Shown here piece after piece: positions 1,963-62,985 of a stretch of 64,000 nt of DNA (position 1 is the stretch's first letter; each line of letters opens with the position of its first letter). A program made the translations under genes and the position numbers. Below the pieces are notes generated by a model. That model saw only the letters and a program-made list of their open reading frames with translations, did no database searches and was not told the DNA's origin. Origin of the DNA: Amycolatopsis sp. (GTDB taxonomy: Bacteria; Actinomycetota; Actinomycetes; Mycobacteriales; Pseudonocardiaceae); assembly GCA_035551175.1 (NCBI GenBank), contig DASZNR010000154.1:17194-81193 (forward strand), written 5' to 3'.

Positions 1963-1975
1963 ATACGGAGACATC

Positions 1976-2293: not shown

Positions 2294-2322
2294 CAATCCC
2301 CCACCGGACAAAGGAGTTCGAC

Positions 2323-28003: not shown

Positions 28004-28022
28004 GGGTCAACCCTTCACGTCG

Positions 28023-28057
28023 TTTCGGGCTAATGATACTATAGGTCAGACCAAAAA
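28023..28057. promoter_or_regulatory. divergent promoter/operator module (class 1) with GGTCAGACC palindrome
   Basis: TTTCGGGCTAATGATACTATAGGTCAGACCAAAAA lies in the 64-nt gap between ACAD (28003, minus) and the MaoC gene (28068, plus). It has face-to-face -10-like TACTAT/TATAGT boxes and is collinear with 22886-22918. Confidence 0.55.
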
Positions 28058-28067
28058 GGGAGGTGCG

Positions 28068-43090: not shown

Positions 43091-43092
43091 TC

Positions 43093-46187: not shown

Positions 46188-46235
46188 CAAAACGAAAGAC
46201 CGCGGCACCGGGTTCGCACACCCGGCGCCGCGGTC
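46188..46235 (-). terminator. intrinsic terminator after the aldehyde dehydrogenase gene (end of the mce-MMPL string)
   Basis: 16-bp stem GACCGCGGCACCGGGT / ACCCGGCGCCGCGGTC (1 mismatch) with a 6-nt loop, followed on the minus strand by CTTTCGTTTTG. Confidence 0.65.
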
Positions 46236-46246
46236 CGCGGTTTCCG

Positions 46247-47733: not shown

Positions 47734-47934
47734 TCAGGCGAGATTGGCGACAACGGCGATCGCGAACAACGCCGCGACCGCCTCGCAGCCCAGCGCTCCC
47801 CGCCGCAGCACCGCCTCCCGGTGCTCCCGGCCCGGGCCCGCTCCGGACAGGACCCGGGCGTTGCGCCGGCCCCATTCCCCGACGAGCCCCAATGCGCCCG
47901 CCAGCGCGAGCTGCAGGACGGCCAGCATCCACAT
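47734..47934 (-). CDS. hypothetical small membrane protein (66 aa, two hydrophobic segments)
   Basis: ATG 47934 lies 9 nt after the PPIase stop. Third positions are high in G/C. The protein has hydrophobic N- and C-terminal segments separated by an Arg-rich loop. The RBS is weak. Confidence 0.35.
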   Translation of the reverse strand: MWMLAVLQLALAGALGLVGEWGRRNARVLSGAGPGREHREAVLRRGALGCEAVAALFAIAVVANLA

Positions 47935-47943
47935 AGGACAGAC

Positions 47944-49179
47944 CTACTTGCCCGCCGGAGCCGGGACCGGTGCCGCGGGCTGCCCGTCCAGGCCGGTCGG
48001 CGGCGGCGCGTCCGGGTCCGCCGGCCGGTAGTCGTCGGCGTACTGCACGGCAGCCGACCGGATCTGCTGGGTCAGCCAGTCCTGCCAGCGGCTCATCAGC
48101 TGTTCGTTGGTCAGCTGCAGCTTCAGCTTGTCCTTCACCGCGTCGAATTGCGCCGGCACTGCGGGCACCACCGACACGACCTTGCCCACATTCCACCCGT
48201 GCGAGGTCTGCACCGGACCGAACACTGCGCCCGACGGCGTGGCGAAGGCGGCTTTGGCGTATGCCGGGTCGAGCTGATCCGCGGTCAGCGCGCCGAGATC
48301 CCCGCCGGAGGCGCGAGTCTGGTCGTCCAGGCTGGATTTCTTCGCGAGGCCCTCGAAAACCGCCCCCGAAGAGACCTGGCCGAGGAGTTGCTTGGCCTCG
48401 TCCTGGGTGCGTACGACGATGTTGCGGATCTCCCGCTTCTCCGGGGTGCCAAGCGAGGCCTGCCGCTTCGGGAAGGCGTCGCGGACCTGCTGGTCGCTGA
48501 CCGCGACTCCGTGCGTCTGCTGGCCGAAAAGCTGGTTGACCGCCAGCATGTGCTTGATCTCGTCGAGGACCGCCTGCTCCGAGGTGCCCGCCGCGCCGAG
48601 GCCTTGCACGAAGTTCGCTTTGGCGTCGGCGCCGTCGCCGGACTGCTGCGAGACGTACCGGGTCAGCACGTCCTGCGCGGTTTTGTCGGCGACGACGATC
48701 CCGTGCTGCCGGGCTTGGCCGTCGAGAATGATCCGCACCGCGTCGGCTTTCGCGACCGCGCGGCGGAATCCGTCGAGTTTGGCCGGGTCGGTCGGGACCT
48801 GGAGCCCGTACAGCGCGCGCAGCCGGTCCGCCTCGGCGTTGAGCTGATCGACCGTGACGACCGTGCCGCCGACCCGGAACGCCGCTCCGGCGGGCAACCG
48901 CCCGGCGTCCCACCAGAAGTAACCGCCGGTTCCGCCGCCGACGAGCACCGCCAGCACGAGCACCGCGACAATCCGGCCCTTCCGGGTGCGCGGCAGCCGC
49001 ACCGCGCGGCGCACCCGGGAAAGCACCGAACGGATCCAGGACTGCCGAGACGGCTCCGCGTCCTCGCCGCCGCGGGGAAGGCCGGATTCCTCTTCCACGG
49101 CCTCGACGTCGTCGTCCTCGGCCACGACCGTGGCGACCCCGCTGCGGGCGGTCTCCTCGGTTTCGTCGTCGGCTGGCAT
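47944..49179 (-). CDS. membrane-anchored parvulin-type peptidyl-prolyl isomerase (PrsA/SurA-like foldase)
   Basis: ATG 49179 is preceded by GGAGGTG. It has an acidic N-terminus, one TM (IVAVLVLAVLVGGG), a SurA-N-like helical part, and a rotamase domain (REIRNIVV...GGDLG...SHGWNVGKV). Confidence 0.8.
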   Translation of the reverse strand: MPADDETEETARSGVATVVAEDDDVEAVEEESGLPRGGEDAEPSRQSWIRSVLSRVRRAVRLPRTRKGRIVAVLVLAVLVGGGTGGYFWWDAGRLPAGAAFRVGGTVVTVDQLNAEADRLRALYGLQVPTDPAKLDGFRRAVAKADAVRIILDGQARQHGIVVADKTAQDVLTRYVSQQSGDGADAKANFVQGLGAAGTSEQAVLDEIKHMLAVNQLFGQQTHGVAVSDQQVRDAFPKRQASLGTPEKREIRNIVVRTQDEAKQLLGQVSSGAVFEGLAKKSSLDDQTRASGGDLGALTADQLDPAYAKAAFATPSGAVFGPVQTSHGWNVGKVVSVVPAVPAQFDAVKDKLKLQLTNEQLMSRWQDWLTQQIRSAAVQYADDYRPADPDAPPPTGLDGQPAAPVPAPAGK

Positions 49180-49181
49180 GG

Positions 49182-51494
49182 TCAACGCACCTCCTCGAGT
49201 GTCTTCAGCGCGGGTTTCCTTGCGGTGGGTGTTTCTCTCTTTCGCGGCGGCCCGGGCACCGACACCGCGACCACGCAGGCCGCGGACAGCAGAGCCAGCA
49301 CGACGGAACCGGCGAGCAGAAGCCCGAACTGCTGGATGACCGCCAGCTTCGACACGACCAGCGCCGCATAGCCGGCCGCGGACGTGATAGCAGCGAGGAC
49401 GACCGAGCGGCGCAACGCCGGGTTGCCCGTCCGGACCGCCGCCGCGAGCACGACGGTGAACTCCGCGCCCACCGCGGCGGTCAGCGAGCCGAGCGCGACA
49501 GTGATCGGGCTCAGCGGGATTCCGCCCGCCCACAGCGCGAAAAGCCCGAGCCCGGTCGCGGCCGTCGCGGCGGCGACCGCTCGCAGCGCGTCGCTCCGCC
49601 TCCGCAGGCCGACGGCGAGCACCAGTCCCGAAGCGACGATGCCGAGCACGTTGGACCAGACCCGATCGCCGGAAATCAATTCGGAACCGCGCACGGCGGC
49701 CATCGGCAACCCCGTCAGGTCCGCCCGATACCCGGCGGGCGGGTTCGGCAGCCGCCGCAGCACGTCGTCTCTCAACTGCCGCAACGCGCCCAGGTCATTG
49801 GTCCGCGCACCGAACACGAGCACGGAGCTGGTGCGGTTCTCGCTTGCCACCGCGGAGCTGAGATACGGCGGCAGCAATCGCATCCCGGCACTGACCTGCT
49901 CGGCTGTCGCGTCGCCGCCCAGGAACGTGAGAAGCGACGGGAGCGAAATAGCGGGGCGAAGCTGGTCGCCGTGCTCGGTGACCACGGAATCCTGCGCTTG
50001 CCGCATCCACCGCAGCGCGGCCGGGGACGTCACGTCCGGCCCGCGCAGGACGAGGTCGACCTCGCCGGACGATCCCAGTGCCCGCTCGACTTCGGCCGCG
50101 TCGGCCAAGGACGGCAGCCCGGTCGCGAAAGCCTCCACATTCGCCTGCAACGGCAAGGAAGGCAGCGAATACCAGCCTGCCGCCGCGAGCGCGGCGGCGA
50201 GCACCGCCATCGCGACACCGCGTTTCCGGTGCACCGCCTTGACCGGGGCAACGGGGACGGGCTCCGCGGACGCGAATCGCCGCAGCAGCAACGCGCCCGT
50301 CACCGCCGAAAGGACCACGCCTACCGAAAGCGTCATCCCGAGATCTCGGACGAACGGCAGCGGGGACACCATCAGCATCGCGAAGCTCGCAGCACTCGCC
50401 GCCGCGACCACCAGCACGGTGCGACGCTTGGCGCGCTGGACGAAGTAAGCCGGGTAGTAGCAGCCGACGCCGAGAAGCACCGACAGAAACGCCACCACGC
50501 CAAGGGAAAGCGTCTTGCCGGACCACCCGAAGAGACCGAGTGTGAGCAGGATCGAGATCAGAGTCACCAGCAGCGGCGGCAGCCGGTGCCGGCGGCGCGT
50601 CCACGGCACCAGCCACAGTGCGAGGGCAACGGAGGCCAGCGCGACCGCCCCGATCACCGGAAGCTCCCTGGCGATTTGCTCCGCGATGGACGACGCCACT
50701 GCGGGCACGCCGGAAACGGTCACCCGGTCCGCACCGGCGGGAGCCTGCCCGACCGCCGCGCGCACTCCGGCCGCCAGCCGGGCAGTCGCGTCCTGGTCCA
50801 TGCCCTCTCGCGGGCGGACCAGCACCGCCACCGAATTCTGCGACGGAACCACGAAATGCCATTGCGCGCGGACCCCGCCGTCGCCGGAATACATGACCGA
50901 ATCCACGAAACGCTGATTGCTCAAGGTCGGCAGCCCGGCAGGCATACCCTGGACCAGAAGCGAGCCGTAACGGCGATCGAACTCGTCCTGTGCGCGCTGC
51001 CCCGCGGCTTGGGCCTTCTCCGGTGCCGCGCCCTTCGCTGCAGCCTCCTGGACCGCTTGCTGACGCACAGCGTCCCGGCGGCCGGTCAGCTCGGCCAGCA
51101 AGTCCTGCGCGCGCCCGGCGAGCTGATTCAGCACAGTCCCGGGCCCGTAGACGCTCGCCACGTCGGGCAGTCCGGCCAGCTTCCCTTCGAGACCGACCAG
51201 CTGATCGAGGTTCCGGCCGCTCAGCATCGCTTTGGGCGCCCGGGATTCGAGCAGCACCACGATCGGATCCCCGCCGAACGACCGCGCCTTTTCGTCGAGC
51301 TGTGTCACGCTCGGGTCGCCGGAGGGCAGAAACGACTCGACCGTCGTCTCCACGCGAAGTCTCGCCAAGCCGCCCGCGCCGAGACCGGCGACGCAGACCA
51401 CTGCGAGCACAAGGCACCACCCGCGCACGGTCCAAGTGCGCGGCGCCCACCGGCGCGCGAGAGCCGCCCGCGTGGCGATCCGCTGGCCGCTCAT
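49182..51494 (-). CDS. MMPL/RND-superfamily membrane transporter (770 aa, ~12 TM, two extracytoplasmic domains)
   Basis: ATG 51494 overlaps the mceF stop (ATGA). The topology read from the sequence is TM1, ~250-aa soluble domain, 5 TM, TM7, ~170-aa soluble domain, 5 TM. Confidence 0.85.
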   Translation of the reverse strand: MSGQRIATRAALARRWAPRTWTVRGWCLVLAVVCVAGLGAGGLARLRVETTVESFLPSGDPSVTQLDEKARSFGGDPIVVLLESRAPKAMLSGRNLDQLVGLEGKLAGLPDVASVYGPGTVLNQLAGRAQDLLAELTGRRDAVRQQAVQEAAAKGAAPEKAQAAGQRAQDEFDRRYGSLLVQGMPAGLPTLSNQRFVDSVMYSGDGGVRAQWHFVVPSQNSVAVLVRPREGMDQDATARLAAGVRAAVGQAPAGADRVTVSGVPAVASSIAEQIARELPVIGAVALASVALALWLVPWTRRRHRLPPLLVTLISILLTLGLFGWSGKTLSLGVVAFLSVLLGVGCYYPAYFVQRAKRRTVLVVAAASAASFAMLMVSPLPFVRDLGMTLSVGVVLSAVTGALLLRRFASAEPVPVAPVKAVHRKRGVAMAVLAAALAAAGWYSLPSLPLQANVEAFATGLPSLADAAEVERALGSSGEVDLVLRGPDVTSPAALRWMRQAQDSVVTEHGDQLRPAISLPSLLTFLGGDATAEQVSAGMRLLPPYLSSAVASENRTSSVLVFGARTNDLGALRQLRDDVLRRLPNPPAGYRADLTGLPMAAVRGSELISGDRVWSNVLGIVASGLVLAVGLRRRSDALRAVAAATAATGLGLFALWAGGIPLSPITVALGSLTAAVGAEFTVVLAAAVRTGNPALRRSVVLAAITSAAGYAALVVSKLAVIQQFGLLLAGSVVLALLSAACVVAVSVPGPPRKRETPTARKPALKTLEEVR

Positions 51495-52798
51495 CGCGGG
51501 GCCGGGAGCGGGTTCACGTGCGGGTACTGACCGCTGAACGGAACCGGCTGCACCGCGCCGGGCGCGGGGTACGGATTCCGTTCGTTCAGCGGACCCACGT
51601 TCGTGTTGAGCGGAACGCCGGTGACGGCTTGCCGGTTCAGCACCGGCAGCAACCGCAGTGCCTTCCCGTCCTTGTTGCCGGTCATCAGCGAGGCTCCCCA
51701 GTTCACGAACAGGTGCGCGATGTCCTGGCCGTAGGGCTCCAGGTAGGTCAGCATCGGGTTCAGCTGCAGCAGATCGTTCTGCAGCGACGGGATCAGGGCA
51801 TCCAGGTCGGCGGCGGCCGGCTGGATCCGCTGCACGGTCGCCGGGGCCTTGCCGAGCACCTGGTCGAGCGCCGGGAGAATGCCGCGCAGGCCGCTCGCCG
51901 CCCTCGGCAGCTGCTCGAGGGCCGTGGTGAGGTCGGGTGCGGCCGTGCGCAGGTCCCGCGCCACCGGCGCCAGCGCGCCCGAGAGCTTCGACAGGCTCGC
52001 GGTGGCCCCGTTGGCCGAGTCGAGGACCCCGGGCAGCTTCCGCACCACCTCCTGCAAGCTCTGGCCGTTGTCCGCGGTCGCCGCCGCGAGCCGGTTGGCG
52101 TTGTCGACCAGGTCCGCGATCTCGCCCTGCCTGGTGTCCAGCGCGGCGAGGAGGGTCGCCGTGCCGCCGGTCAGCTGCTTCAGGTCGGCGGACTGCGCGG
52201 CGAGTGCGTCGAGCGCGGTCTTCCCGTTCCGGCCCAGCTGGCCCAGCCCGCTCAGCGCCCGGTCGATGTCCTGCCTGCGGTCCTGCGTGGCCATGCCGAG
52301 GGACCGCAGGCTCTCGCCCAGCGCCTGCCGGGTGCCGCCGTCGAGGCTGACCAGCACGTCGTTCAGCTCGACCGCCGGTTTGGCCGAGCCGTCCGGCAGG
52401 CTCGCCCCGTTCGCCAGCGCCGCGCCCTTGCCGTCGGCGACCTCCAGGAACGTCTCGTCGACCAGCGTCTTCTGCCGGACCTGAACAGTGGCGCCGCCGT
52501 GCAGCGGCGCGTTGCTGTCCAGCTGAAGCGTCGCTCGCGCACCGTTGCCGACGACCTCCAGCGAAGCGACCTTGCCGACGGTCACGCCGGCGATCGTCAC
52601 GTCCGAGTTCTCGACCAGGTTCGACGCCTTCGGGAGGTTCAGGCTCACCCGGTAGCCGGTCTTGCTGACCAGCGGCAGCCTGCCGCCGGCGTTGACCCAC
52701 AGGTAGCCGAAGATGACGACGCAGACGAGGGCGAACACGCCGAGCACGATCAGCCGGATCTTCGGCAACGCGGCATGGGGAATGTTCATCGGGACCAC
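51491..52798 (-). CDS. mceF: MCE-family substrate-binding protein (sixth of six)
   Basis: It has an N-terminal TM (IRLIVLGVFALVCVVIFGYL) followed by an MlaD/MCE domain (VTIAGVTVGKV). The start is GTG 52798 or ATG 52789. The symbol is positional only. Confidence 0.85.
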   Translation of the reverse strand: MVPMNIPHAALPKIRLIVLGVFALVCVVIFGYLWVNAGGRLPLVSKTGYRVSLNLPKASNLVENSDVTIAGVTVGKVASLEVVGNGARATLQLDSNAPLHGGATVQVRQKTLVDETFLEVADGKGAALANGASLPDGSAKPAVELNDVLVSLDGGTRQALGESLRSLGMATQDRRQDIDRALSGLGQLGRNGKTALDALAAQSADLKQLTGGTATLLAALDTRQGEIADLVDNANRLAAATADNGQSLQEVVRKLPGVLDSANGATASLSKLSGALAPVARDLRTAAPDLTTALEQLPRAASGLRGILPALDQVLGKAPATVQRIQPAAADLDALIPSLQNDLLQLNPMLTYLEPYGQDIAHLFVNWGASLMTGNKDGKALRLLPVLNRQAVTGVPLNTNVGPLNERNPYPAPGAVQPVPFSGQYPHVNPLPAPR

Positions 52799-54079
52799 CT
52801 AGCGCGGGGAGTGCGGGAACCGGTACGGAGCGGCCGGCGTGGACAGCGGCAGCAGCGCGTTCGTGCCGAGCGTCTGCGGGGTCAGCACGAGGAAACCGCG
52901 CAGGATGCCGCCGTTTCCGTCTTTCATGCTGGTCAGCGATCGGGTGTTGACGAAGAACGCGCCGAGATCGGACAGGCTCGACACCGCCGCGCTCGTGACT
53001 CCGTTCAGCCTGCTGGTCGACGCTCGCAGGTCCGGGAGCGTCGCCTGCAAATCCGACGCCACCGGGCGGAGGTCCTGCACCACCGGCCGCGCCTTCTGCA
53101 CGACCGGCATGCCCTTGTCGACGGTGCTGCCGAGATTGCCGACGGTGTTGCTCAGCTTGTTCAACGCTCCGGGAAGGGTGCCCGCGGCGTTCTTGAGGTT
53201 GTCCAGCGTCGGGTCCAGCTGGCCGCTGAGCGACTGCACCGCGTCAGTGGCCTGCTTGAGCTGCCGGGTGAAGTCCGGCAGCTGGCCGAGCACCGATTTG
53301 AGGTCGCCGTTGTGCGCGCCGACGGCCGCCAGCGTGGTGTTCAGATCTCCGGCGAGGCGGCCGAGCCGGTCGCCGTCGCCGCCGACCGCCTGCGAGATCT
53401 GCGACAACGCCGTCACCAGCCGCTGCAACGCGTCCCGGCGGGACTGCAGCGATTCGACGACCGGCTGCAGCTTCTTGGCCACCTCATCCGTCATCCGGAC
53501 ACCGCCGGGCAGGTTCTGCGGCGCGGCGGCCAAGGCGACGTCGGACTCCTGGAGAAGGGTGGCCAGCGCCTGCCGGGTGTTGTCGTCGAGGTGACCCAGG
53601 ACCTCGTCGATCTGAACCGGGCGCTGTGACTGCGAAACGGGCAGCACGCCGTCGGCGTCCAGCTTCGGCGCGGGCGGGCCGCCGGGACTCAGCTCGACGT
53701 ACATCTCGTTCAGCGGGCTCTTCGGCCGCAGGACGACGGTCGCGTTCTGGTACACGGGATAGCGGGAATCGATCGACAGCTCCAGCCGGGGCCGTCCGCT
53801 GTCGTCCAGGCCGGCCGCCTCGATCTCCCCCACCTGCACCCCGGCGATGCGCACTTCCTGGCCGTGGCCCGGGCTGACGCCCGGCGTGTCCTCGAACGTC
53901 GCGGAGAAGGTGAACCGGTCGTTCCACGGCCAGGAGAACCGCTGGTTGGCCAGGATGATGCCGCCGACCAGTGCCGCCAGCACGATCAACGCCGCCAGCA
54001 CCGCGACGTTGCGGAACAGCCCTGGTTCGGTGCGGACCCGCTGCCAGCCCCGTCCGATCTTGCCGAGCCGCGCGTTCAT
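52799..54079 (-). CDS. mceE: MCE-family substrate-binding protein (fifth)
   Basis: ATG 54079 overlaps the mceD stop. It has a TM segment followed by an MCE domain (VRIAGVQVGEI). Confidence 0.85.
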   Translation of the reverse strand: MNARLGKIGRGWQRVRTEPGLFRNVAVLAALIVLAALVGGIILANQRFSWPWNDRFTFSATFEDTPGVSPGHGQEVRIAGVQVGEIEAAGLDDSGRPRLELSIDSRYPVYQNATVVLRPKSPLNEMYVELSPGGPPAPKLDADGVLPVSQSQRPVQIDEVLGHLDDNTRQALATLLQESDVALAAAPQNLPGGVRMTDEVAKKLQPVVESLQSRRDALQRLVTALSQISQAVGGDGDRLGRLAGDLNTTLAAVGAHNGDLKSVLGQLPDFTRQLKQATDAVQSLSGQLDPTLDNLKNAAGTLPGALNKLSNTVGNLGSTVDKGMPVVQKARPVVQDLRPVASDLQATLPDLRASTSRLNGVTSAAVSSLSDLGAFFVNTRSLTSMKDGNGGILRGFLVLTPQTLGTNALLPLSTPAAPYRFPHSPR

Positions 54080-55431
54080 CGGCCCCCCTGCTGGTTGAGG
54101 TGGATCTGCTGCTGAAGCTGGTCGAGGAAGTGCTGGAGGTTCACCGGCAGCCCGCCCGCGGTGCCCAGCCCGAACCCGACCTGGATCGCGATCGCGTGCC
54201 CGTTCGGGTCGAACAGCGACGAGGTCTTGTCCAGATTCGTCACCGCGCCGCCGATCTCCTGGTACATCGGAACGTCCGAAGTGGACTGGGCGTACTCGCC
54301 GGCGCCGTGGTACTTGCTGTACAGGAAGTCCTTGACCGGACCGTTCAGCCGGTCCAGCACCGGCCCGCGCACGTCGGAGAGAACCCCGGTCGCGTCGCGG
54401 CTGACCGGGACGAGCTGATTCACCAGCGGTCCCGCGTCGGCGAGAAGAGCATTGGTCTGCCGGACGAACGGCTCTGTCTTCGCGAGGACCGGGTCAAGGC
54501 GCGTGAGCGCGGCGGACAACTGCTTGACGGTCGGCCGCGCGACGTCCGAAGTGTCACGCAGCTTGCCGAGGCTGGTGTCGAGCCGGTTCAGTCCCGCGTC
54601 GGCGGAGCGCAGCGTCGCGGGCAGATCCCGGACTGTCGCGGCGATTTCACTGCTCTCCTCGCCCAGGGTGGAGCTGACCTTCGCCAGGTTCGAGACTGTC
54701 GAATCGAGCTGTCCCTGATGCTCGGACAACCTCGCGGACGCGGATTCCAGACCGGTGACCAAGTTCGGCAAGTCAGTGCCGGGGTGCTGGCCGCGCGCCG
54801 CGTCGAGCACGTTCCCCGCCGGTTCGAGAACGTCCGGGGCGTCCGCCAGGAGCTGGTCGATCGCCTGCCGCCCGCCGCCGCGCAACGTCTCGTCCGTCTT
54901 GCCGACCGTGTGCTGCAGCCCGGCCAAAGCGTCCGGCTGCACCGTGTTGGCCACCTGGTCGAGTTCCACCGGAAGCTGCGTCCGCTCCACCGGGATGCCG
55001 GAATCGGCCAGCTCGCCCGGAGCACCGCCCGGCTGGAGATCGACGAAGTAGTTGCCGCCCAGCAGAGTGGTCGGGCGGATCGCCGCGCTCGGCTTGGACC
55101 GCAGTTTCGCCAGCGTTCCCTTGTCCAGCTTGAGCGAAACCACCGCGCTGCCGTCGGTCTGCTCGTCCACCCCGGTGACCGTGCCGACCGGCGCGAACCC
55201 GACCTTGACCTGGGATTGGTAAGGCTGCAACCGATAGTTCCGGGCGAAGTGCGCGGTGATCGTGTCGCCGGGCGACAGCGTCGTGACGATCTGGGATTTC
55301 GCGAACAGGCCGATGCCGACCAGCAGAATCAGCACCACGAAGAGGCTGCCCAGCTTGACCGGGGAGATCCGCCGGCGAACGCCGTCCGGGCGGGCGCCGC
55401 CGAACAGCCTGCGAAGCGTCGACTCGGTCAT
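54076..55431 (-). CDS. mceD: MCE-family substrate-binding protein (fourth)
   Basis: ATG 55431 overlaps the mceC stop. It has a TM (LGSLFVVLILLVGIGLF), an MCE domain and a helical repeat region. Confidence 0.85.
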   Translation of the reverse strand: MTESTLRRLFGGARPDGVRRRISPVKLGSLFVVLILLVGIGLFAKSQIVTTLSPGDTITAHFARNYRLQPYQSQVKVGFAPVGTVTGVDEQTDGSAVVSLKLDKGTLAKLRSKPSAAIRPTTLLGGNYFVDLQPGGAPGELADSGIPVERTQLPVELDQVANTVQPDALAGLQHTVGKTDETLRGGGRQAIDQLLADAPDVLEPAGNVLDAARGQHPGTDLPNLVTGLESASARLSEHQGQLDSTVSNLAKVSSTLGEESSEIAATVRDLPATLRSADAGLNRLDTSLGKLRDTSDVARPTVKQLSAALTRLDPVLAKTEPFVRQTNALLADAGPLVNQLVPVSRDATGVLSDVRGPVLDRLNGPVKDFLYSKYHGAGEYAQSTSDVPMYQEIGGAVTNLDKTSSLFDPNGHAIAIQVGFGLGTAGGLPVNLQHFLDQLQQQIHLNQQGGR

Positions 55432-56726
55432 TGGCCCGCTCCTGTCGTCCCGGCCGCCGAACCGCGACGCTGCCCGCCAGCCGTCCCTGGCGGGGCATAG
55501 GGGTCACGAGCTGCGGTCGGATCCTTGAGCCCGACCAGACCGGTCACCGATTCGGTGTCGATCGGGGTGTAGATCCGGAGGAAATGCCCTGCCGCGTCGC
55601 CGTATTTCATGGCGTCGGCGAAATCGGAGAAGAACTCGGAGATCTCCGGCGAATAGGGGGCGATCTGCTCCAGCGGCTTCCGTGCCGTGGTGACCGCGGA
55701 CGTCAGCAGCGGGGCCAGCGGCCGCGCGTCGGCCAGCGTGCCGGTCAAGGCGCCGACCGCCGGTTGCGCCTGATCCGCCACGCCGGGAACCCGTTGCAAC
55801 GGCGGAATGCTCTCGCGCAGCACGCCGCGGACGTCCGGAGTCGCCTTGCCGAGCGCGTTCGCACCCGGCCGCAACGCGGTCACCGCCGCCTCCGTGTCGG
55901 ACAACGGACCGTGCAGGTCCCGCAACGCGCCACGGACCTTCTCCAGCGTGCCCGGCGCCCGATCCATCGTGTCGCTCAGCGGCTTTCCGTTGTCCGCGTC
56001 CAGTGCGCGCAAGGTGGTGTCCAGCCGTCCGGCCAGTTCGCCGAGTTGCTGCTGCCTTCCGGAGAAGCCCCCGGCGAAATGGTTGGCGACCTGCAGCAGG
56101 CGAGTCAGGTCCTGTCCGGACCCCGCGCTCAGCGCCCGCGAAACCGTGCCGAGGTCGGGCACGATCGCGGGCAGCGCACCCGCCGCGTCGGAAAAGTCCT
56201 TCACGTGTCCGGCCGCGCCGCCGCCGACCTCGCGGACGGTCGAGCCGAGCGCCTGCCGGGTGGGTGCGTCAAGCACCGCCAGCACGTCCGAAAGCTCTTG
56301 TGCCCCGACTGTTTTGGTCGCCGGAATCACCGCGGCCGAGTCGAGTTTGCCCGCTTTCGGATCCCCGGGATTCAGGTCGACGTACTTCTGGCCCAGCGCG
56401 GACCTCGCCCCGACGGACGCGGTCACCGCCGACGCGTCCCGGAAGACCTGCCGATCGTCGTCGAGCCGCATGGTGACCCGCGGCTTCCCGTCGACCAGAT
56501 CGATCGCGCTCACCTGGCCCACCCGCACGTTCGCGATCCGGACGTCGTCGCCCGCCCGCAGCGCGCCGACGTCGTCGAACGTGGCGCGCACTACCGTCCC
56601 GGAGGCGCCGGGCAGTCCCGAACTCGCGGTGAGCGCGAGGTAGAGCGCGCCGCCGAACACGACGGCGATCGCCCCGCCCAGCAGCATGGCCCGCCGCCGC
56701 GCCCACTTCCCGCTTCCAGTGGCCAT
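55428..56726 (-). CDS. mceC: MCE-family substrate-binding protein (third)
   Basis: ATG 56726. It has a TM followed by an MCE domain (VRIANVRVGQV). Confidence 0.85.
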   Translation of the reverse strand: MATGSGKWARRRAMLLGGAIAVVFGGALYLALTASSGLPGASGTVVRATFDDVGALRAGDDVRIANVRVGQVSAIDLVDGKPRVTMRLDDDRQVFRDASAVTASVGARSALGQKYVDLNPGDPKAGKLDSAAVIPATKTVGAQELSDVLAVLDAPTRQALGSTVREVGGGAAGHVKDFSDAAGALPAIVPDLGTVSRALSAGSGQDLTRLLQVANHFAGGFSGRQQQLGELAGRLDTTLRALDADNGKPLSDTMDRAPGTLEKVRGALRDLHGPLSDTEAAVTALRPGANALGKATPDVRGVLRESIPPLQRVPGVADQAQPAVGALTGTLADARPLAPLLTSAVTTARKPLEQIAPYSPEISEFFSDFADAMKYGDAAGHFLRIYTPIDTESVTGLVGLKDPTAARDPYAPPGTAGGQRRGSAAGTTGAGQ

Positions 56727-56729
56727 CAG

Positions 56730-58103
56730 TCAGTTCCCTCCGAGCAGGAATTGCAGTGCACCGTTTTCCTGGCCCTGCGACATTCCGGTGACGCTCCCGT
56801 CTGGGCCGGTCTTCGGAGCCAGCAGCCCGCCGAGCGGCGCGGGGGCCGCAGCCGGAGGCTTGCCCGCGGCCGGTGCCTGCCCGGTGGGCGCGGGGGCGGC
56901 AGTTTGCGGCTGCCCCGCCAGCGACGGCAGGAGGCCGGTCGCGATTCGCGGGTCGACGACGAACAGCGCCCGGAAGTAGTGGGAAAGGCCGTCGCTGCCG
57001 TTGGTGCTCAACGCCCAGCCGCGGACGAAGTTCATGACGTCGCCGATGTTGTTCGCCAGCTCGGCCGTGACCGGCTTGAGCGCGGCCGCGTCCGCCCGCA
57101 GCGGAGGGCTTGCCTTCAGCAGTTCCTGGGTGACCGGCCTCGCCGCGTCGAGCAGCGCCTGTGCCTTGTCGAGCACCGGCTGCGCATGCGTCAGCGCCGG
57201 GTCGGCGCTTTCGGTGAACCGGGTGATCTCGTCGCTGATCGCCTGGAGGTTCCCGGTGACCGGCCGGATGTCGGCGAGCACCGGGGTCGCGGCGCCGGCC
57301 GTCCCGGCGAGCTGCGACAACGTCGAGCGCGCTTGGGCCAGAGTCGCGGGCAGCTGGGCGAGCGTCTGCTGCACCTGCTGTTGCTTGCCCGCTGTCGTGG
57401 CGAGAAGGTTGTGAGTCGACTCGACCAAGGAGTCCAGCGTCTGGCCGTTGTCCCGCGCGAGCGACTGCGCGACCGGCTCGACGTTGTCCACCAATTGGTT
57501 CAGCGTCGTGTTCTGCTCGTTGAGCACCTTGGCGAGCCCGCTCGCGTCGGTCATCGCCGGTGCCAACGCCTTGATCGTGTCCGCGACGTGGGTGCCATTG
57601 CCTTGCATGCCCTGGCCCAGCATGGTGACCAGAGCCGCGAGCGCATCGCCGGTGTTCTGGTCGAACACGTTGAGCACCTGGTCGAGGTCGGTGTTCTGAG
57701 TCGTGTGCGCGAGGGGGATCACTCCGCCCGGGCGCAGCACCGGAGCCGCGGGCGTGCCGCGGCCGAGGTCGAGAAAGCGCTCGCCGAGAAGGCTTACCGG
57801 GCGGACCGCCGCGGTGGCGTCGACGTGCAGCGGCAGGGCTCGTTCGTCCACCGTGAACGTGACGGCCGCGTGACCGTCCACAACGGACATCGCGGTCACC
57901 GTTCCGACGGCCACCCCGTCCACTTTGACGTCGTTGCCCACCAGCAGCGGACTGGCGTCGGCGAACTGCGCGACGACAGTCTGCGGCTCGTGATGCCCCG
58001 CGGCCTCCGCGCCCAGCACCGACCAGCCGAGGCCCACCGCTGCGACCACGACGACGCTGAGCAGCCGCAACCGGCGTGCCGCCCAAGACCCGATCCGCTT
58101 CAT
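56730..58103 (-). CDS. mceB: MCE-family substrate-binding protein (second), with Pro/Ala-rich C-terminal tail
   Basis: ATG 58103 overlaps the mceA stop (ATGA). It has a TM followed by an MCE domain (VKVDGVAVGTV). The track ORF to 59369 is an artefact. Confidence 0.85.
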   Translation of the reverse strand: MKRIGSWAARRLRLLSVVVVAAVGLGWSVLGAEAAGHHEPQTVVAQFADASPLLVGNDVKVDGVAVGTVTAMSVVDGHAAVTFTVDERALPLHVDATAAVRPVSLLGERFLDLGRGTPAAPVLRPGGVIPLAHTTQNTDLDQVLNVFDQNTGDALAALVTMLGQGMQGNGTHVADTIKALAPAMTDASGLAKVLNEQNTTLNQLVDNVEPVAQSLARDNGQTLDSLVESTHNLLATTAGKQQQVQQTLAQLPATLAQARSTLSQLAGTAGAATPVLADIRPVTGNLQAISDEITRFTESADPALTHAQPVLDKAQALLDAARPVTQELLKASPPLRADAAALKPVTAELANNIGDVMNFVRGWALSTNGSDGLSHYFRALFVVDPRIATGLLPSLAGQPQTAAPAPTGQAPAAGKPPAAAPAPLGGLLAPKTGPDGSVTGMSQGQENGALQFLLGGN

Positions 58104-59332
58104 CGCACTCCACTCCCCCACGCGTCTTTCCACGGCTGGTTGGCGTTCGCGCCGGGCAGCGGATACGGCTCGTTCTGGGTTCCCGGCGGCAGCACCCCCG
58201 GGTTGTCCGCGAACGTCGTGGCGCCCTCTTGCAGATAGAACCGGACGAAGTGGCCGTTCGCGTCGTAGTTGCCGCCGTTGGACGACCATTCCGAAACCCA
58301 GCCGGCGAGTTCCGGGGTGAACGGCCGCAGGTAATTCAGCACCGGGCCGAGGTAGCTGGCCGTGCCCGCGACCCCGGGCACCGTCTGGTGCGCGACGTCG
58401 AGCAAGCCCGGCGTGGCGTCGAGCAACTGGTTCGCTCCGGCCAAGGTCGGGGCCAGTTTGTCCAGCAGTGGCGGGATCTGCTGCAGCACCGGCGAAAGCT
58501 TCCTCGCCACCGACGGCAGCTGTTGCGTCGCCGGTTGGAGGTCTTGCAGCAGCGGAACCGCCTTGTCCGCGGTCGCCGGCACAGTGCCGAGCACCCGGTT
58601 GGCAGTGTCCAAAGTCCCCGGAAGCTGTTTGAGCGTGCTCGCCAGCTGCTGCCGCTGTTGAACCGTCAGCGCCGTCGTCTTCGACAGCGAGTCGATGATC
58701 GCGCGCACGTCTCCGTCGTGTTTGGACAGTGTCCCGACCATCGAGTTGACCTGGGTGACGAGATCGCGCACAGCGGGGCCGTCCCGCCCGATCCCGCTCA
58801 GCACCTGTCCGAGGGACGACAGCGCGGGACCGGCGGCACGCAAGGTGTCGCTGGCGTTCCGCTCGTTCCCGTGCACGGTCTGGTCGAGCTGGTTCACCAA
58901 CGACGAGAGGTGCTCGCGCGTCGGCTTGTCCAGCGCGGCCAGCACGTCGTCGAGGTTCGTCGGAGCGATTTGCGAGCCGGGGAGCATCCCGCCGTCCGGG
59001 ATCGCCGCGTTGGCGGGCGCGCCGTCCTTGATTTCGACCCACCGCTCCCCCAGCAGGGCTTTCCACTCCACGGTCACCTTCGCGCCGTCGTGCAGCGGGG
59101 CGCTCTTTTCGTCGAGCGCGAGCCGCAGCATCGCTTTCCCGTCCTGGACCGAGATCGACTCGACCTTCCCGGCCGGAAAGCCGTTCATGGTGACCTCGCC
59201 GCCCTCGTGCAGGTTCGTCGCCGAAGCCAGCACGACGCCCACTCGGTAGACCCGGCTGTCCACGGCCCAGACGAGGCCCGCGGCCACCAGGACGGCGACC
59301 GCGATCACTCCAGCAAGCACTCCTCTGCGCAC
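58100..59332 (-). CDS. mceA: MCE-family substrate-binding protein (first)
   Basis: GTG 59332. It has a TM (VLAGVIAVAVLVAAGLV) followed by an MCE domain (VTMNGFPAGKV). Confidence 0.85.
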   Translation of the reverse strand: MRRGVLAGVIAVAVLVAAGLVWAVDSRVYRVGVVLASATNLHEGGEVTMNGFPAGKVESISVQDGKAMLRLALDEKSAPLHDGAKVTVEWKALLGERWVEIKDGAPANAAIPDGGMLPGSQIAPTNLDDVLAALDKPTREHLSSLVNQLDQTVHGNERNASDTLRAAGPALSSLGQVLSGIGRDGPAVRDLVTQVNSMVGTLSKHDGDVRAIIDSLSKTTALTVQQRQQLASTLKQLPGTLDTANRVLGTVPATADKAVPLLQDLQPATQQLPSVARKLSPVLQQIPPLLDKLAPTLAGANQLLDATPGLLDVAHQTVPGVAGTASYLGPVLNYLRPFTPELAGWVSEWSSNGGNYDANGHFVRFYLQEGATTFADNPGVLPPGTQNEPYPLPGANANQPWKDAWGSGVR

Positions 59333-59337
59333 CGGAA

Positions 59338-60189
59338 TCAGTCCATTCCCAGCGGCCCCGCGGAATCACCCGCGAGGAACTGCCGGACGAACGGGTCCTG
59401 CGACGCGAACGCCTCCTCGGCCTCGCCGTAGTGCACCACTTTGCCCTTCCAGATCAAGCCCACGTAGTCGCTGACTTTGCGCGCGCTGCGAATGTCGTGG
59501 GTCACCACGAGATAGGTGCCCTTGTGCCGCTCGTGCATCTGCAGGATGAGATCGCACAACAGGCTGGTGCGCACCGGATCCAGCCCGGAATCCGGCTCGT
59601 CGAACAACACGATCTCCGGGTTCATCACCAGCGCCCGCGCGAAGCCGGCGCGCTTGCGCATCCCGCCGGAGATCTCGCTCGGGTGTTTGGTCAGCGCTGC
59701 TTCGAGGCCCACCTCGATCAGCCGCTCCATGACGATGTTCTCGATCTCGGCCTCGGGCAGATCGGTGTGCTTGCGCAACGGGAACGCGACATTGTCGTAA
59801 ATGTTCATCGAGCCGAACAGCGCGCCGTCCTGGAACAGCACCCCGAACCGCTTCCGCAGTTCGTAGCGCTCGTGCTCGCTTATCCGCCAGATGTCCTTGC
59901 CGAAGATCAGCACCTCGCCGTCGTCCGGTTCGAGCAGTCCGACCAGATGCTTGATGAGCACGCTCTTGCCGGTGCCCGAAGGGCCGAGGACAGTCGTGAT
60001 CGCGTCGTTGGCGAACTCCAGATTGAGCCCGTTGAGCACGTGGAAATCGCCGAACGCCTTGTGCACGTCGCGCACCTGCATCGTGTGCGCGGGCCTTCCG
60101 ACCGCCGGGGCGACGCTCCCGAACGGAACCGTCGGGTCCGGATCGGACACCGCCCGCGCGGCGGGGATCTTCGCGCTTCCGGAATTCAC
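59338..60189 (-). CDS. mceG: ABC-transporter ATPase (MceG/Mkl/MlaF-like)
   Basis: GTG 60189 is preceded by GAGGAGG (alternative ATG 60081). It has Walker A GPSGTGKS, signature ISGGMRKR and Walker B VLFDEPDSGLD. Confidence 0.88.
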   Translation of the reverse strand: MNSGSAKIPAARAVSDPDPTVPFGSVAPAVGRPAHTMQVRDVHKAFGDFHVLNGLNLEFANDAITTVLGPSGTGKSVLIKHLVGLLEPDDGEVLIFGKDIWRISEHERYELRKRFGVLFQDGALFGSMNIYDNVAFPLRKHTDLPEAEIENIVMERLIEVGLEAALTKHPSEISGGMRKRAGFARALVMNPEIVLFDEPDSGLDPVRTSLLCDLILQMHERHKGTYLVVTHDIRSARKVSDYVGLIWKGKVVHYGEAEEAFASQDPFVRQFLAGDSAGPLGMD

Positions 60190-60236
60190 CGGACCTCCTC
60201 TTCGTCGGCACAGCTGGGGGTTTCGGGGACGGGCGG

Positions 60237-61100
60237 CTAATTCGCGATCGGCGCGTTCGGGCTGAGCCCCCAGAACAACTGGGTGCCGAGCAATCCGACG
60301 ACGTGGATCAGCACCATGGACAGCATCATGGATTTCGCGGTGTTCTTGCCGACGCCGACCGGCCCGCCGCCCGCGGTGTAGCCGTAATAGCAGCCGACGA
60401 ACACCACGACGGTGCCCATCGCCAGCGCCTTCGCCAAGGAGTACAAGAAGTCCAGCGGATTCTGGAACAGCCAGAAGGTGTACAGATAGCCGCCGGAGGA
60501 GACCCCGCTCAGCTGGACGACCGTGACCAGGTACATCGACAGGTACATCAGGCCGAGCCCGACCGTGAACAGCAACGGCATGGCGATCCAGGTGGCCACG
60601 ATCCGGGTGCCCACGAGGTAGCTGCGCGACCGGATCCCCATCACCTCCATCGCGTCGATCTCCTCCGCGATGCGCATCGACCCGATCTCCGCGACCAGGC
60701 CACAGCCGACCTTCGCCGCGAAGATGTAGCCCCACATGTACGGAGCCATTTCCCGGGTTCCGCAATAGGTGTTGAAGATCCCGCTGTAGATCGGCGCGCC
60801 GATCTGCTTGAGCGTGTAGCTCGCTTCCAGCCCGCACACCGAGCCCATCACGAACTGCATCATCCAGATGATCAGGCCGCTGGACAGGATGAGAATGCCC
60901 GCCTGGTGGAAGATTTCCGAGAAATAGCGGCGAACCTGCGGCAGCGCGCGGGCGGTCTGCCCGGAGAACCGGGCGATCTCTCCGCCGGTGGCGAGCGCCT
61001 CGCGCATTTTCGCGCCGATGTTCGCCGCAGAAATGTGGACGTCAGGCGGTTTCGGCGCGCGCGACACGCGTGCCGGAGGGAGGTCTTCGTCGATCGACAT
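60237..61100 (-). CDS. yrbEB: MlaE/YrbE-family permease
   Basis: 287 aa, polytopic, with the conserved EEIDAMEVMG motif. Confidence 0.88.
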   Translation of the reverse strand: MSIDEDLPPARVSRAPKPPDVHISAANIGAKMREALATGGEIARFSGQTARALPQVRRYFSEIFHQAGILILSSGLIIWMMQFVMGSVCGLEASYTLKQIGAPIYSGIFNTYCGTREMAPYMWGYIFAAKVGCGLVAEIGSMRIAEEIDAMEVMGIRSRSYLVGTRIVATWIAMPLLFTVGLGLMYLSMYLVTVVQLSGVSSGGYLYTFWLFQNPLDFLYSLAKALAMGTVVVFVGCYYGYTAGGGPVGVGKNTAKSMMLSMVLIHVVGLLGTQLFWGLSPNAPIAN

Positions 61101-61109
61101 GCGCCGGCC

Positions 61110-61946
61110 TTACTTGTAGACCTGCATCTGCGGGTTGAGCCCGAGCAGGATGGTCGTGAAGACGTAATCGATGATCCAGATGGCGGCGAACGCGCTCACC
61201 ACCGCCTGGTTGACCGCGCGGCCGACCCCGATCGGGCCGCCCTTCACATGGATGCCCTTGTAGCAGCACACGACGCCGATGATGAAACCGAACACGGTCG
61301 TCTTGGCCACGCTGCCCCAGATGTCGATGGTCGTCGCGTTGTCGAAGAAGCTGGCGAAGAAGCTCGCCTGGTTCGCCCCGAAGACCACCACCCCGGCGAG
61401 ATAGCCGCCGACGACGCCGAAGACCAGCGCCACCAGGTCCATCAGCCCGGTCATGAAGGTGACCGCCAAGACCCGGGGCAGCACCAGATCCCGGATCGGG
61501 TCGACGCCGAGCACTTCCATCGCGTCGATCTCTTCCCGGATCCGCCGGGCCCCGAGGTCCGCGGTCATGGCGGTGCCGACCACCCCGGCCACCACCATCG
61601 CGTTGATCCACGGCGCGAACTCGCGCACGCTCGCCATGATGAAGAACGAGCCCAGCCGCTCCGGAATGCCGAACAGCAGGAAGATGTTGCCGCCCTGCAA
61701 GCCCGGCGCGCCCAGGCCGAACGCCGTCGTGGACACGGCCATCGGAAGCCAGCACAGCCGGAGGATGCCGAACATCTGGTCGCGCACCGAACCCCAATAG
61801 CCGACCGGATGCCGCACCGCCGACCGCACCACCTCGCCCGCGAGCTGCACCATCTCGCCGGCTTCCGCCAGCGGGGAACCAGTCTTGGCGAGGAACCCGC
61901 CGCCGAGCGGCTTCCGTTTCGGCTTCGCAGCCGCTGGCGCGGTCAT
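61110..61946 (-). CDS. yrbEA: MlaE/YrbE-family permease
   Basis: ATG 61946 overlaps the upstream stop (ATGA). 278 aa with the EEIDAMEVLG motif. Confidence 0.88.
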   Translation of the reverse strand: MTAPAAAKPKRKPLGGGFLAKTGSPLAEAGEMVQLAGEVVRSAVRHPVGYWGSVRDQMFGILRLCWLPMAVSTTAFGLGAPGLQGGNIFLLFGIPERLGSFFIMASVREFAPWINAMVVAGVVGTAMTADLGARRIREEIDAMEVLGVDPIRDLVLPRVLAVTFMTGLMDLVALVFGVVGGYLAGVVVFGANQASFFASFFDNATTIDIWGSVAKTTVFGFIIGVVCCYKGIHVKGGPIGVGRAVNQAVVSAFAAIWIIDYVFTTILLGLNPQMQVYK

Positions 61947-62341
61947 GTCCGCTCCCTTCGCCGGGCTCCGGCGAAGCCCGCCGCCGCGCCCACCGCGAGC
62001 GCGACCGCGGCGGTCAGCCCGATCCAGCCGAGCCCGGCGGCTCCGCCTCCGCCCGCGAGGACCAGGGGCAGAACGAGGAGATACGAACTGACCGCAGCCA
62101 CTATGCCTTGCACCACCGGGTGTTCGCTGCCGCCGACCCGCACGCCCCCGACGGCGAATGCCGCCACCGCCACCGCCGACAGCCAGCAAGGCCCGATGAC
62201 GGGGAGCCGTCCGGCCAGCGGCGCCAGCAAACCGCCGAGCACCAGCACCGTGAATCCCCGGGAGCAGCCGCGAATCAGCGCCTCGGCGTCGATCCCGCCC
62301 CAGAGCGCGAGACCGGTCCGGTCGCGGTGAGCTGAACTCAT
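61943..62341 (-). CDS. hypothetical polytopic membrane protein (132 aa, ~4 TM)
   Basis: ATG 62341 is preceded by AAAGGAAAC. The protein is Gly/Ala/Leu/Val-rich with hydrophobic segments. I see no zf-HC2 (HxxxCxxC) anti-sigma motif. Its stop overlaps the yrbEA start. Confidence 0.6.
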   Translation of the reverse strand: MSSAHRDRTGLALWGGIDAEALIRGCSRGFTVLVLGGLLAPLAGRLPVIGPCWLSAVAVAAFAVGGVRVGGSEHPVVQGIVAAVSSYLLVLPLVLAGGGGAAGLGWIGLTAAVALAVGAAAGFAGARRRERT

Positions 62342-62358
62342 CGTCCGTTTCCTTTCTG

Positions 62359-62985
62359 TCACGCCGAGACCTCCTCCGGCGCGAGCAGTTCGGCGAGATT
62401 GCGCGTCGCGCGCAACTGCAGCTGCCGCAACGCGGTCCGGCTGCGGCCCAGTGCGAGTGCTGTCTCCGCAACCGAACGACCCTCGAGAAATCGCAGGTAC
62501 AGACACTCCCGCTGGGCCGGGGCGAGTTGTGCCAGCCTGGTCCAGACCACGTCCCGGGCCAGCCGCCGCAGCACCAGATCTTCCGCGCTCGGTTCGGCCG
62601 GGCCGGTGTCGTCGGGCGCGCTCACCGGTGTCACCGAGCGCTGGTACCGGGACTTCGCGTGGTCGAAGACCATATTCCGGCCGATCGTGAACAGCCAGGC
62701 GCGGAACTTTCCTTTCTGGAACCGCACCCCGTCCAGCGATCGAAGCATCCGCACGAACACTTCGCTGGTCAGGTCGTCCGCGAGGTCAGGACTCGCCACC
62801 TTCGACCGGATGAAGCGCCGCACCGCGCCGACGTGCGCGCGGTAAAGCGCCGCCACCGACTCGATATCGCCGCGCCGCGCCGATTCGAGCAGCGCCCAGG
62901 ACTCCTCGTCGGGGAAGAAGTCCCGCTCCCGCAGCGGATCAGAATCGGATGACGCCGCGGATGTTGCGGCCGGCGAGGAGATCAT
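62359..62985 (-). CDS. ECF-type sigma-70 family RNA polymerase sigma factor
   Basis: Region 2 is ARRGDIESVAALYRAHVGAVRRFI...DDLTSEVFVRM. Region 4 HTH is SVAETALALGRSRTALRQLQLRA. ATG 62985 is the only plausible start and lies 47 nt inside the upstream ADH gene. Confidence 0.85.
   Translation of the reverse strand: MISSPAATSAASSDSDPLRERDFFPDEESWALLESARRGDIESVAALYRAHVGAVRRFIRSKVASPDLADDLTSEVFVRMLRSLDGVRFQKGKFRAWLFTIGRNMVFDHAKSRYQRSVTPVSAPDDTGPAEPSAEDLVLRRLARDVVWTRLAQLAPAQRECLYLRFLEGRSVAETALALGRSRTALRQLQLRATRNLAELLAPEEVSA

Follow-up and report, generated by a model that had tools for sequence, protein, structure and literature searches.

Mce transporters are central to mycobacterial lipid uptake and virulence, and their accessory proteins (Mam, LucA, LucB and Mce1N) are the least understood part of these systems. 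The characterized actinobacterial Mce1 and Mce4 systems import lipids (PMC13492129). In the actinomycete operons described by Casali and Riley (2007; PMC1810536), mkl precedes yrbEA and mas genes lie downstream; RND or isomerase genes are not mentioned there. Here, we analyzed a 64,000-nt stretch of Amycolatopsis sp. DNA (GenBank assembly GCA_035551175.1, contig DASZNR010000154.1, positions 17,194 to 81,193 of the forward strand; hereafter, the window). It holds a minus-strand mce operon with an in-operon ATPase gene, an RND gene directly after mceF, a gene for a parvulin-like peptidyl-prolyl isomerase (PPIase) homologue and genes for two small membrane proteins. The locus is apparently an undescribed Mce transporter subtype, common in non-mycolate Actinomycetota. 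An earlier, sequence-only reading of the window had presented this part list as undescribed and the locus as singular; no description of the mce–RND–parvulin arrangement was found in the open-access literature, whereas the gene order belongs to a common and tightly conserved operon type rather than a rare one.

Gene content and conservation of the operon

Because the window has a G+C content of about 70%, raw lists of open reading frames (ORFs) are noisy, and genes were picked from a frame plot of G+C at third codon positions (GC3). The plot supports the chosen starts and resolves, on the minus strand, one clean string of genes between 62985 and 46247; all the ORFs of the sequence-only reading are present where it had placed them. 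Products were identified by Pfam and NCBIfam profile searches of the window ORFs, the check that this reading had proposed, and every one of its product calls held. Gene callers applied to independent short assemblies of the same organism gave the same genes for the RND protein (770 aa), the parvulin-like protein (411 aa) and a 66-aa protein.

The transporter core starts with two MlaE-family permeases, YrbEA (61110–61946; E = 3.8e-59) and YrbEB (60237–61100; E = 8.3e-58), both of which carry the EExDA loop motif in the form EEIDA. As had been read from the sequence, the gene of an MlaF/Mkl-type ABC ATPase of 283 aa (59338–60189; ABC_tran) lies between yrbEB and mceA. The ATPase has the Walker A, Walker B and H-loop motifs and a variant signature, ISGGM instead of LSGGQ. 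Its top NCBIfam model is MlaF, at 215 bits and below the 441-bit cutoff, and it shares 50% identity with Mkl-type ATPases from canonical operons; at about 350 aa, these are some 65 aa longer.

Six distinct Mce proteins follow (51491–59332), each with an MlaD domain, one N-terminal transmembrane (TM) helix and a sub-threshold Mce4_CUP1 match: MceA (58100–59332; TM at residues 1–29), MceB (56730–58103; MlaD E = 2e-14, TIGR00996 131 bits), MceC (55428–56726; E = 5e-16), MceD (54076–55431; E = 6.7e-8), MceE (52799–54079; E = 1e-11, TIGR00996 158.7 bits, above cutoff) and MceF (51491–52798; E = 1.3e-13). MceA matches a chain of the Mycobacterium smegmatis Mce1 structure (8fed/8fee, E = 2.5e-8). The window Mce proteins are only 21–29% identical to those of a canonical Mycobacterium operon, without clear one-to-one orthology, whereas identities inside the RND-type group are 35–82%, which makes the RND-type operons a deep, separate branch.

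A survey of one genome per species, with the RND alignment as query, found the RND-type operon in 74 genomes, which span four orders and at least 14 genera. The hosts are Pseudonocardiales (Amycolatopsis, Pseudonocardia, Saccharopolyspora, Prauserella, Sciscionella, Haloechinothrix, Actinophytocola, Actinomycetospora and Thermocrispum), Streptomyces, Frankia and Protofrankia, and the Nocardioidaceae Nocardioides and Aeromicrobium. The window proteins were mapped onto these loci, each count being expressed over the loci with enough flanking sequence. The order yrbEA–yrbEB–ATPase–mceABCDEF–RND–PPIase is colinear everywhere. The RND gene immediately follows mceF in 70/70 loci, the ATPase gene stands between yrbEB and mceA in 61/61, and the PPIase gene is downstream of the RND gene in 68/69, so that the mceF–MMPL–parvulin adjacency for which synteny mining had been suggested is borne out. 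The gap between mceF and the RND gene is 19 nt or less in 68/69 loci, and in 46/69 a start codon permits the same 4-nt overlap as in the window. The PPIase gene is absent only from Thermocrispum (L063) and from the separate P0038 lineage, where a helicase gene follows the RND gene. The conserved module consists of about 13 genes in the order (4-TM)–yrbEA–yrbEB–ATPase–mceA–F–RND–chaperone–micro-protein–(4-TM).

Two deviating arrangements were also observed. In one locus (L083, 1044–11178), an RND-type yrbEA–yrbEB–ATPase set is directly followed by a second, divergent yrbEA'–yrbEB'–mceA–D set (44–47% and 34–39% identity), which looks like a tandem or hybrid operon. Five metagenome loci (L089, L096, L104, L108 and L122; for example, L096 10001–11614) contain yrbEA/yrbEB pairs about 70% identical to those of the window, and tblastn found no ATPase or mce genes after yrbEAB in the several kilobases of downstream sequence present. 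In L096, Pfam searches of the ORFs after yrbEAB gave no match, the choice of ORFs being probably wrong. These loci may have a different set of YrbEAB partners or very divergent Mce proteins.

The absence of Mas/Mam genes was analyzed with a hidden Markov model (HMM) whose training set was ten products of genes immediately 3' of mceF, taken from canonical operons on Mycobacterium, Rhodococcus and Pseudonocardia plasmids. The ten form one family, with a single TM helix followed by an α/β domain of about 130 aa that ends in GRWL[VI]S, in agreement with the published description of Mas proteins (PMC1810536). The HMM recovered two Streptomyces plasmid Mas genes from outside the training set (E = 1e-35 and 3e-31), and control scores overall ranged from 1e-31 to 1e-73. 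No match was obtained among the 697 six-frame ORFs of the window at E ≤ 10 with the speed filters off. The possibility that Mas/Mam homologues hide in the RND, PPIase or small ORFs is thereby rejected, and the sequence-only statement that the operon is free of them held. Across the 74 RND-type loci, the HMM had a single match (E = 1e-27), in Aeromicrobium sp. Root495 (L053, 16876–17646), 4.7 kb downstream of the RND gene.

The four accessory proteins

The gene after mceF (49182–51494) encodes a 770-aa protein with 12 TM helices and more than 700 database homologues, the closest named one coming from Amycolatopsis acidiphila (85% identity). Its match to Pfam MMPL (PF03176) is marginal, 25.3 bits against a cutoff of 20.5 and over 143 residues only. 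It scores below the NCBIfam cutoffs for MMPL (TIGR00833, 26.9 against 874.7 bits), HAE3 (TIGR00921, 129.8 against 351.9 bits) and HpnN. A family profile run against PDB sequences gave HpnN as the sole, weak match (E = 2.6e-4). An AlphaFold 2 (AF2) model was obtained from 42 homologues with a predicted local distance difference test (pLDDT) score of 84.7 and a predicted TM-score (pTM) of 0.78. The model shows 12 TM helices and two extracytoplasmic domains, with a helical hairpin of 65 residues at positions 118–182. The top Foldseek matches are MmpL4/MmpL5, HpnN and MmpL3, followed by NPC1/Patched; matches to MmpL4/5, MmpL3 and HpnN have E-values of 1e-18 to 1e-15 and TM-scores of 0.6–0.68 at about 15% identity. 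The original MMPL call is right for the 12-TM, MmpL/HpnN-class fold and marginal as a family label: the protein is a distinct clade within the MmpL/HpnN structural class, dedicated to Mce operons.

In RND pumps, TM4 and TM10 are the helices that bear the proton relay. The invariant residues of the Mce-linked clade include Tyr347 and Tyr350 in TM4 and Glu678 and Thr680 in TM10, on the basis of which the RND protein is probably driven by the proton-motive force (PMF). The Tyr pair and the Glu presumably stand where MmpL3 has its Asp–Tyr pairs. An active, PMF-coupled role is plausible from this residue conservation.

The next gene (47944–49179) encodes a protein with an N-terminal membrane anchor (TM at 68–89), a SurA_N_3 domain and a parvulin domain (Rotamase, 59 bits; Rotamase_2, 61 bits), an architecture resembling PpiD/PrsA. 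Both His of the parvulin dual-His motif are replaced by Asn in 70/70 homologues (IR-N-IVV and GW-N-VGK), and in an alignment to the SurA P2 domain, GWH reads GWN in this protein. The protein previously termed a foldase keeps the anchor and the parvulin domain and lacks the catalytic pair. Because both catalytic His residues are changed to Asn, the protein is probably a chaperone rather than an isomerase. Judged from its sequence, the Asn/Asn parvulin is a distinct parvulin-like clade tied to Mce operons.

Two small membrane proteins, whose families were traced with iterated HMMs on six-frame ORFs, complete the set. The first is a 66-aa micro-protein with two TM helices (47734–47934), matching its own HMM family and no Pfam or NCBIfam model. 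In 55 of the 74 genome loci, its gene comes directly 3' of the PPIase gene and shares its strand; when only loci with 1.8 kb or more beyond the RND gene are counted, the figure is 54/69. The conserved motifs G-W-G-x-R-N-A and RRG are found on either side of a cytoplasmic loop. The second is a 132-aa protein with four TM helices (4-TM protein; 61943–62341), also without a Pfam or NCBIfam match; its family comprises 182 clusters at 50% identity, none of them annotated. The 4-TM gene is operon-linked throughout at a variable position: it precedes yrbEA in the window and in eight metagenome loci, follows the PPIase or micro-protein gene in 17 genomes, and in Pseudonocardia bannensis lies just upstream of yrbEA with divergent transcription. 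The two small ORFs, which could have been taken as incidental, are thus both conserved, and on this sequence evidence they are accessory components of the operon.

Whether the 4-TM protein resembles LucB was a question set before modeling. LucB (MSMEG_3032/Rv2536) is a small membrane subunit that sits on the Mce1C TM helix and was previously unlinked to MCE transporters (PMC9882608). An AF2 model of the 4-TM protein, built with database homologues, has four helices and a pLDDT of 75. When it was compared with 350,542 PDB chains by Foldseek, the rank-1 match was 8fed_K, from the Mce1–LucB complex, a weak match with E = 0.6 and a TM-score of 0.42. Two profile searches of PDB sequences, with 19- and 111-sequence profiles, gave no sequence link to LucB. 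The model thus offers a lead that the 4-TM protein may be a LucB analogue.

A function as anti-sigma factor, which the neighbouring sigma gene could suggest, was rejected. The sigma gene adjoins the 4-TM gene in only 4 of 26 cases, 21 of the 25 other loci have no sigma gene, the 4-TM gene occupies three different positions, and no anti-sigma domain was detected in the protein by Pfam or NCBIfam.

In eight loci from Actinomycetospora and some Pseudonocardia (L023, L030, L033, L040, L044, L049, L060 and L061), the micro-protein and 4-TM genes are separated by the gene of a further ABC ATPase, which is about 325 aa long and has a TM helix at its C-terminal end. This gene lies about 0.3–1.3 kb past the micro-protein gene, mostly on the opposite strand; some loci have a second copy on the plus strand.

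Flanking genes and proposed function

The gene string of the window is tightly packed. Junctions of 0–47 nt had been claimed; the 47-nt gap is confirmed, and the true range also includes 4-nt overlaps. ATGA overlaps occur at 4-TM/yrbEA, mceA/B, mceC/D, mceD/E and mceF/RND, and the RND/PPIase junction is a 2-nt gap with an ATG start that becomes an overlap only with an alternative TTG start. The string is headed by a gene for an extracytoplasmic function (ECF)-type sigma-70 factor (62359–62985; Sigma70_r2, Sigma70_r4 and Sigma70_ECF), and its last gene encodes an aldehyde dehydrogenase (ALDH; 46247–47692; Aldedh E = 9e-154). Directly 3' of the ALDH stop, an intrinsic terminator-like hairpin (46197–46236, minus strand) with a 17-bp stem, 13 of its pairs GC, is followed by the T-tract TTCGTTTTGC; this strong hairpin plus T-tract, at which the string had been read to end, is confirmed.

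Upstream of the sigma gene lies a lineage-specific gene for a Zn-containing alcohol dehydrogenase (ADH) of the N,N-dimethyl-4-nitrosoaniline (NDMA)-dependent type (62939–64000, minus strand; TIGR03989 482 bits, above cutoff). Its stop overlaps the sigma start by 47 nt, and its homologues are found again close to the operon at other loci. Since the gene also leaves the window, the transcription unit may begin beyond it; a truncated pseudogene was rejected, as the frame is open to base 64000, the window end. The gene past the terminator encodes an Amidohydro_2 protein, not an ADH. A scan of 45–64 kb for sigma-70 promoters found none, as expected in high-GC actinomycete DNA.

The sigma factor and the ALDH had been taken as parts of the design. 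The sigma gene is adjacent to the 4-TM gene in four instances, the window included (the others being L076, L077 and L113), and lies about 7 kb downstream in L024, L025, L026, L050 and L070; ALDH adjacency is confined to the closest relatives (L001, L002 and L017). By this distribution, both are lineage-specific additions outside the conserved system. A regulator with GAF and LuxR-type domains is more widespread than the ECF sigma factor. Its gene lies directly after the operon on the opposite strand in 19 genomes (including L003, L010, L011, L014, L017 and L020), and a protein of the same architecture is encoded in the window at 34189–35289, 12 kb from the operon. The GAF–LuxR protein is a candidate operon regulator.

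Other genes recur downstream of the operon in other genomes: Zn-dependent ADH (16 loci), acyl-CoA synthetase (14 loci) and ALDH, with ALDH/ADH pairs within 10 kb in many loci. A 155-aa neighbour protein, present at eight loci, is 42% identical to the SCP2 protein beside the canonical, Mas-type mce operon of a Rhodococcus plasmid, which has ALDH and fatty-acid CoA ligase genes upstream.

The remainder of the window is a catabolic island. A cluster at 5–4883 contains genes for a P450 (cut by the window start), a ferredoxin reductase, a Zn-ADH and an ALDH, and resembles a pathway for the terminal hydroxylation and oxidation of a hydrophobic substrate. The island also encodes four enoyl-CoA hydratases, at least five acyl-CoA dehydrogenases, two APH-type kinases, a CoA-transferase III, a luciferase-like monooxygenase, three short-chain dehydrogenases/reductases, a thiolase, a MaoC hydratase pair and three further acyl-CoA synthetases, together with TetR, GntR, PucR and GAF–LuxR regulators. 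The MaoC/FAS1-DH-type hydratase genes overlap each other (28002–28879) beside acyl-CoA dehydrogenase and acyl-CoA synthetase genes, and we take the pair to resemble the heteromeric ChsH1/ChsH2 hydratase of sterol side-chain degradation. A 405-aa protein with a C-terminal hydrophobic segment (42766–43983, minus strand) has no Pfam or NCBIfam match and has weak homologues (29–34% identity) encoded just downstream of the operon in L013 and L019. No terpenoid-diagnostic genes were found in the island, and no KshA, KstD or Hsa-type ring-degradation genes among the genes called and scanned across the window. The missing ring-cleavage genes argue weakly against sterols. The 'terpenoid-like' and 'non-sterol' labels of the sequence-only reading are not demonstrated by these genes, which amount to a P450/ADH/ALDH set plus generic β-oxidation functions.

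Taken as a whole, the RND-type operon likely encodes a complete Mce-family ABC lipid transporter that forms a distinct, conserved subtype in actinobacteria without a mycolate outer membrane. Uptake of hydrophobic substrates for catabolism is its most likely role, favoured by the recurrent ADH, ALDH, acyl-CoA synthetase and SCP2 neighbours and by the island of the window. Gene content, conservation and coupling, the absence of Mas, the RND fold class and the Asn/Asn parvulin are observed; the physical association of the accessory proteins with the Mce core, the direction of transport, the substrate and the specific RND role are what we infer. The core would comprise a YrbEA/YrbEB permease heterodimer, the operon-encoded MlaF/Mkl-type ATPase and six Mce proteins that, by analogy with the M. 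smegmatis Mce1 complex, would form a heterohexameric ring with a helical needle through the cell wall. Four dedicated partners, the RND protein, the chaperone and the 2-TM and 4-TM proteins, would replace the Mas/Mam proteins that stabilize mycobacterial systems. The RND protein, translationally coupled to mceF, would probably be PMF-driven, and the PpiD/PrsA-like chaperone would probably aid the folding and assembly of exported Mce subunits with proline-rich tails. The 4-TM protein may clamp a Mce TM helix in a LucB-like manner. The imported substrate would be oxidized through the neighbouring ADH, ALDH, acyl-CoA synthetase and β-oxidation genes, and in this window the ECF sigma and ALDH genes would have joined the transcription unit.

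Several points weigh against this assignment. The RND proteins of the MmpL/HpnN class are exporters, which is awkward for import. The neighbours vary, with hut genes in P. bannensis and the helicase gene in the P0038 lineage. The PPIase is not strictly essential, as it is lost in L063 and in the P0038 lineage. The LucB link is one Foldseek match, at the E-value and TM-score given above, to which the sequence profiles add nothing. Finally, for every member of the subtype, the direction and the substrate are inferred.

The exporter nature of these relatives bears on a second explanation, in which the operon serves envelope-lipid export or maintenance: the RND protein would extract a membrane lipid, the Mce tunnel would carry it outward, and the chaperone and the ECF sigma factor would belong to an envelope-biogenesis or stress module. 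In agreement with this, MmpL4/5, MmpL3 and HpnN, the nearest folds of the RND protein, all export lipids or siderophores, extracytoplasmic functions typically involve ECF sigma factors and PpiD/PrsA-type chaperones, and the conserved core includes no catabolic gene while its flanks differ by lineage; the direction of MCE systems is, moreover, debated in the Mla literature. By contrast, ADH, ALDH, acyl-CoA synthetase and SCP2 genes recur at many loci, the same trio stands beside the Mas-type Rhodococcus operon, and the window is part of a 60-kb catabolic island. In the work of Casali and Riley (2007; PMC1810536), Mkl-type ATPases group with importers, and the characterized Mce1 and Mce4 are lipid importers (PMC13492129). 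We consider export unlikely.

An ordinary Mce transporter that merely neighbours an unrelated RND/chaperone/micro-protein module is highly improbable: the RND–PPIase–micro-protein block is a contiguous sub-module, and the PPIase is lost in L063 and the P0038 lineage while the mce genes stay, but the RND gene directly follows mceF in all 70 homologues with enough flank, across four orders, the mceF/RND stop/start overlap is conserved, and none of the 74 loci shows this RND clade in a different setting. A disguised sterol uptake system of the Mce4 type is hardly credible either, since the sub-threshold Mce4_CUP1 matches, the ChsH1/2-like hydratase pair, acyl-CoA dehydrogenase/APH pairs and P450 of the window and the SCP2-like neighbours elsewhere are set against the failure to find KshA, KstD or Hsa-type genes among those scanned in the window, the low identity of the Mce proteins to canonical ones without clear one-to-one orthology, and the absence of Mas/Mam, which Mce4 requires.

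A bolder and tentative idea is that the RND protein is physically joined to the Mce ABC machine in a single trans-envelope lipid transporter powered by both ATP and the PMF, with the Asn/Asn parvulin and the small TM proteins as assembly and clamping factors; this is conceivable, although we would not call it probable. If true, such a machine would be a new route for hydrophobic molecules across the thick wall of actinobacteria that lack an outer membrane, and its accessory set would be an evolutionary substitute for the mycobacterial Mam/LucA system. In this operon lies a first hint of possible cooperation between ABC-type Mce tunnels and RND lipid pumps.

A large group of soil actinobacteria appears to have solved the Mce accessory problem otherwise, through a degenerate parvulin chaperone and an RND protein in obligate linkage. 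The operon type is a natural experiment on what Mce accessories do, and Amycolatopsis, Streptomyces and Saccharopolyspora are tractable, non-pathogenic systems for Mce assembly. Four unannotated or mis-annotated families are defined here, namely the Mce-linked RND clade, the Asn/Asn parvulin, the 2-TM micro-protein and the 4-TM protein. The obligate Mce–RND linkage and the Asn/Asn parvulin are likely the features most surprising to specialists.

Comparison with known systems

The in-operon ATPase is shared with the 'mce6'-type operons of Streptomyces and Nocardia (PMC1810536), as is the occurrence in non-mycobacterial actinomycetes, including Amycolatopsis and Streptomyces. That type has the order mkl–yrbEAB–mceA–F–mas, also seen in L133; in the RND type, by contrast, the ATPase gene comes after yrbEB, and mceF is succeeded by the genes for the RND protein, the chaperone and the micro-protein. 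In the canonical plasmid operons of Rhodococcus (L131, 15806–16858) and Pseudonocardia (L132, 7924–8973), an Mkl-type ATPase gene comes after the mas genes, a third position besides those upstream of yrbEA and between yrbEB and mceA. For the mce clusters of Saccharopolyspora hirsuta and Nocardioides simplex in published transcriptome work, no link to the RND type could be made in either case; the S. hirsuta MMPL gene is unrelated to mce.

The RND protein shares with MmpL4/5, MmpL3 and HpnN the 12-TM fold, the two extracytoplasmic domains and the conserved polar residues in TM4 and TM10. It differs in sequence (about 15% identity), in the 65-residue hairpin of the first extracytoplasmic domain and in the position of its gene, always directly after mceF. 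Similarly, the parvulin-like protein combines an N-terminal anchor, a SurA_N_3 chaperone domain and a parvulin domain in the manner of PpiD, PrsA and SurA, whereas both of its dual-His positions are Asn and its gene is dedicated to the Mce operon, not to general secretion. The 4-TM protein is, like LucB, small, polytopic and associated with a heterohexameric Mce system. Unlike LucB, to which the 111-sequence profile detects no similarity, it is encoded in linkage with the operon; lucB presumably lies away from the mce1 locus, judging from our reading of the locus tags.

The closest overall resemblance is to mycobacterial Mce1 and Mce4 (8FEE; YrbEAB–MceA–F with MceG and Mam/LucA/LucB). In common with these, the RND-type operon is tightly organized and encodes two EExDA permeases, an Mkl/MlaF-type ATPase and six Mce proteins with N-terminal TM helices and long helical C-terminal regions. 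In contrast to Mce1 and Mce4, its hosts have no mycolate outer membrane, its Mce proteins are only 21–29% identical to canonical ones, and its ATPase, about 65 aa shorter, is encoded within the operon between yrbEB and mceA. Where the mycobacterial systems rely on Mas/Mam genes, this operon has none; the genes of the RND protein, the parvulin-type chaperone and the small 2-TM and 4-TM proteins are there instead.

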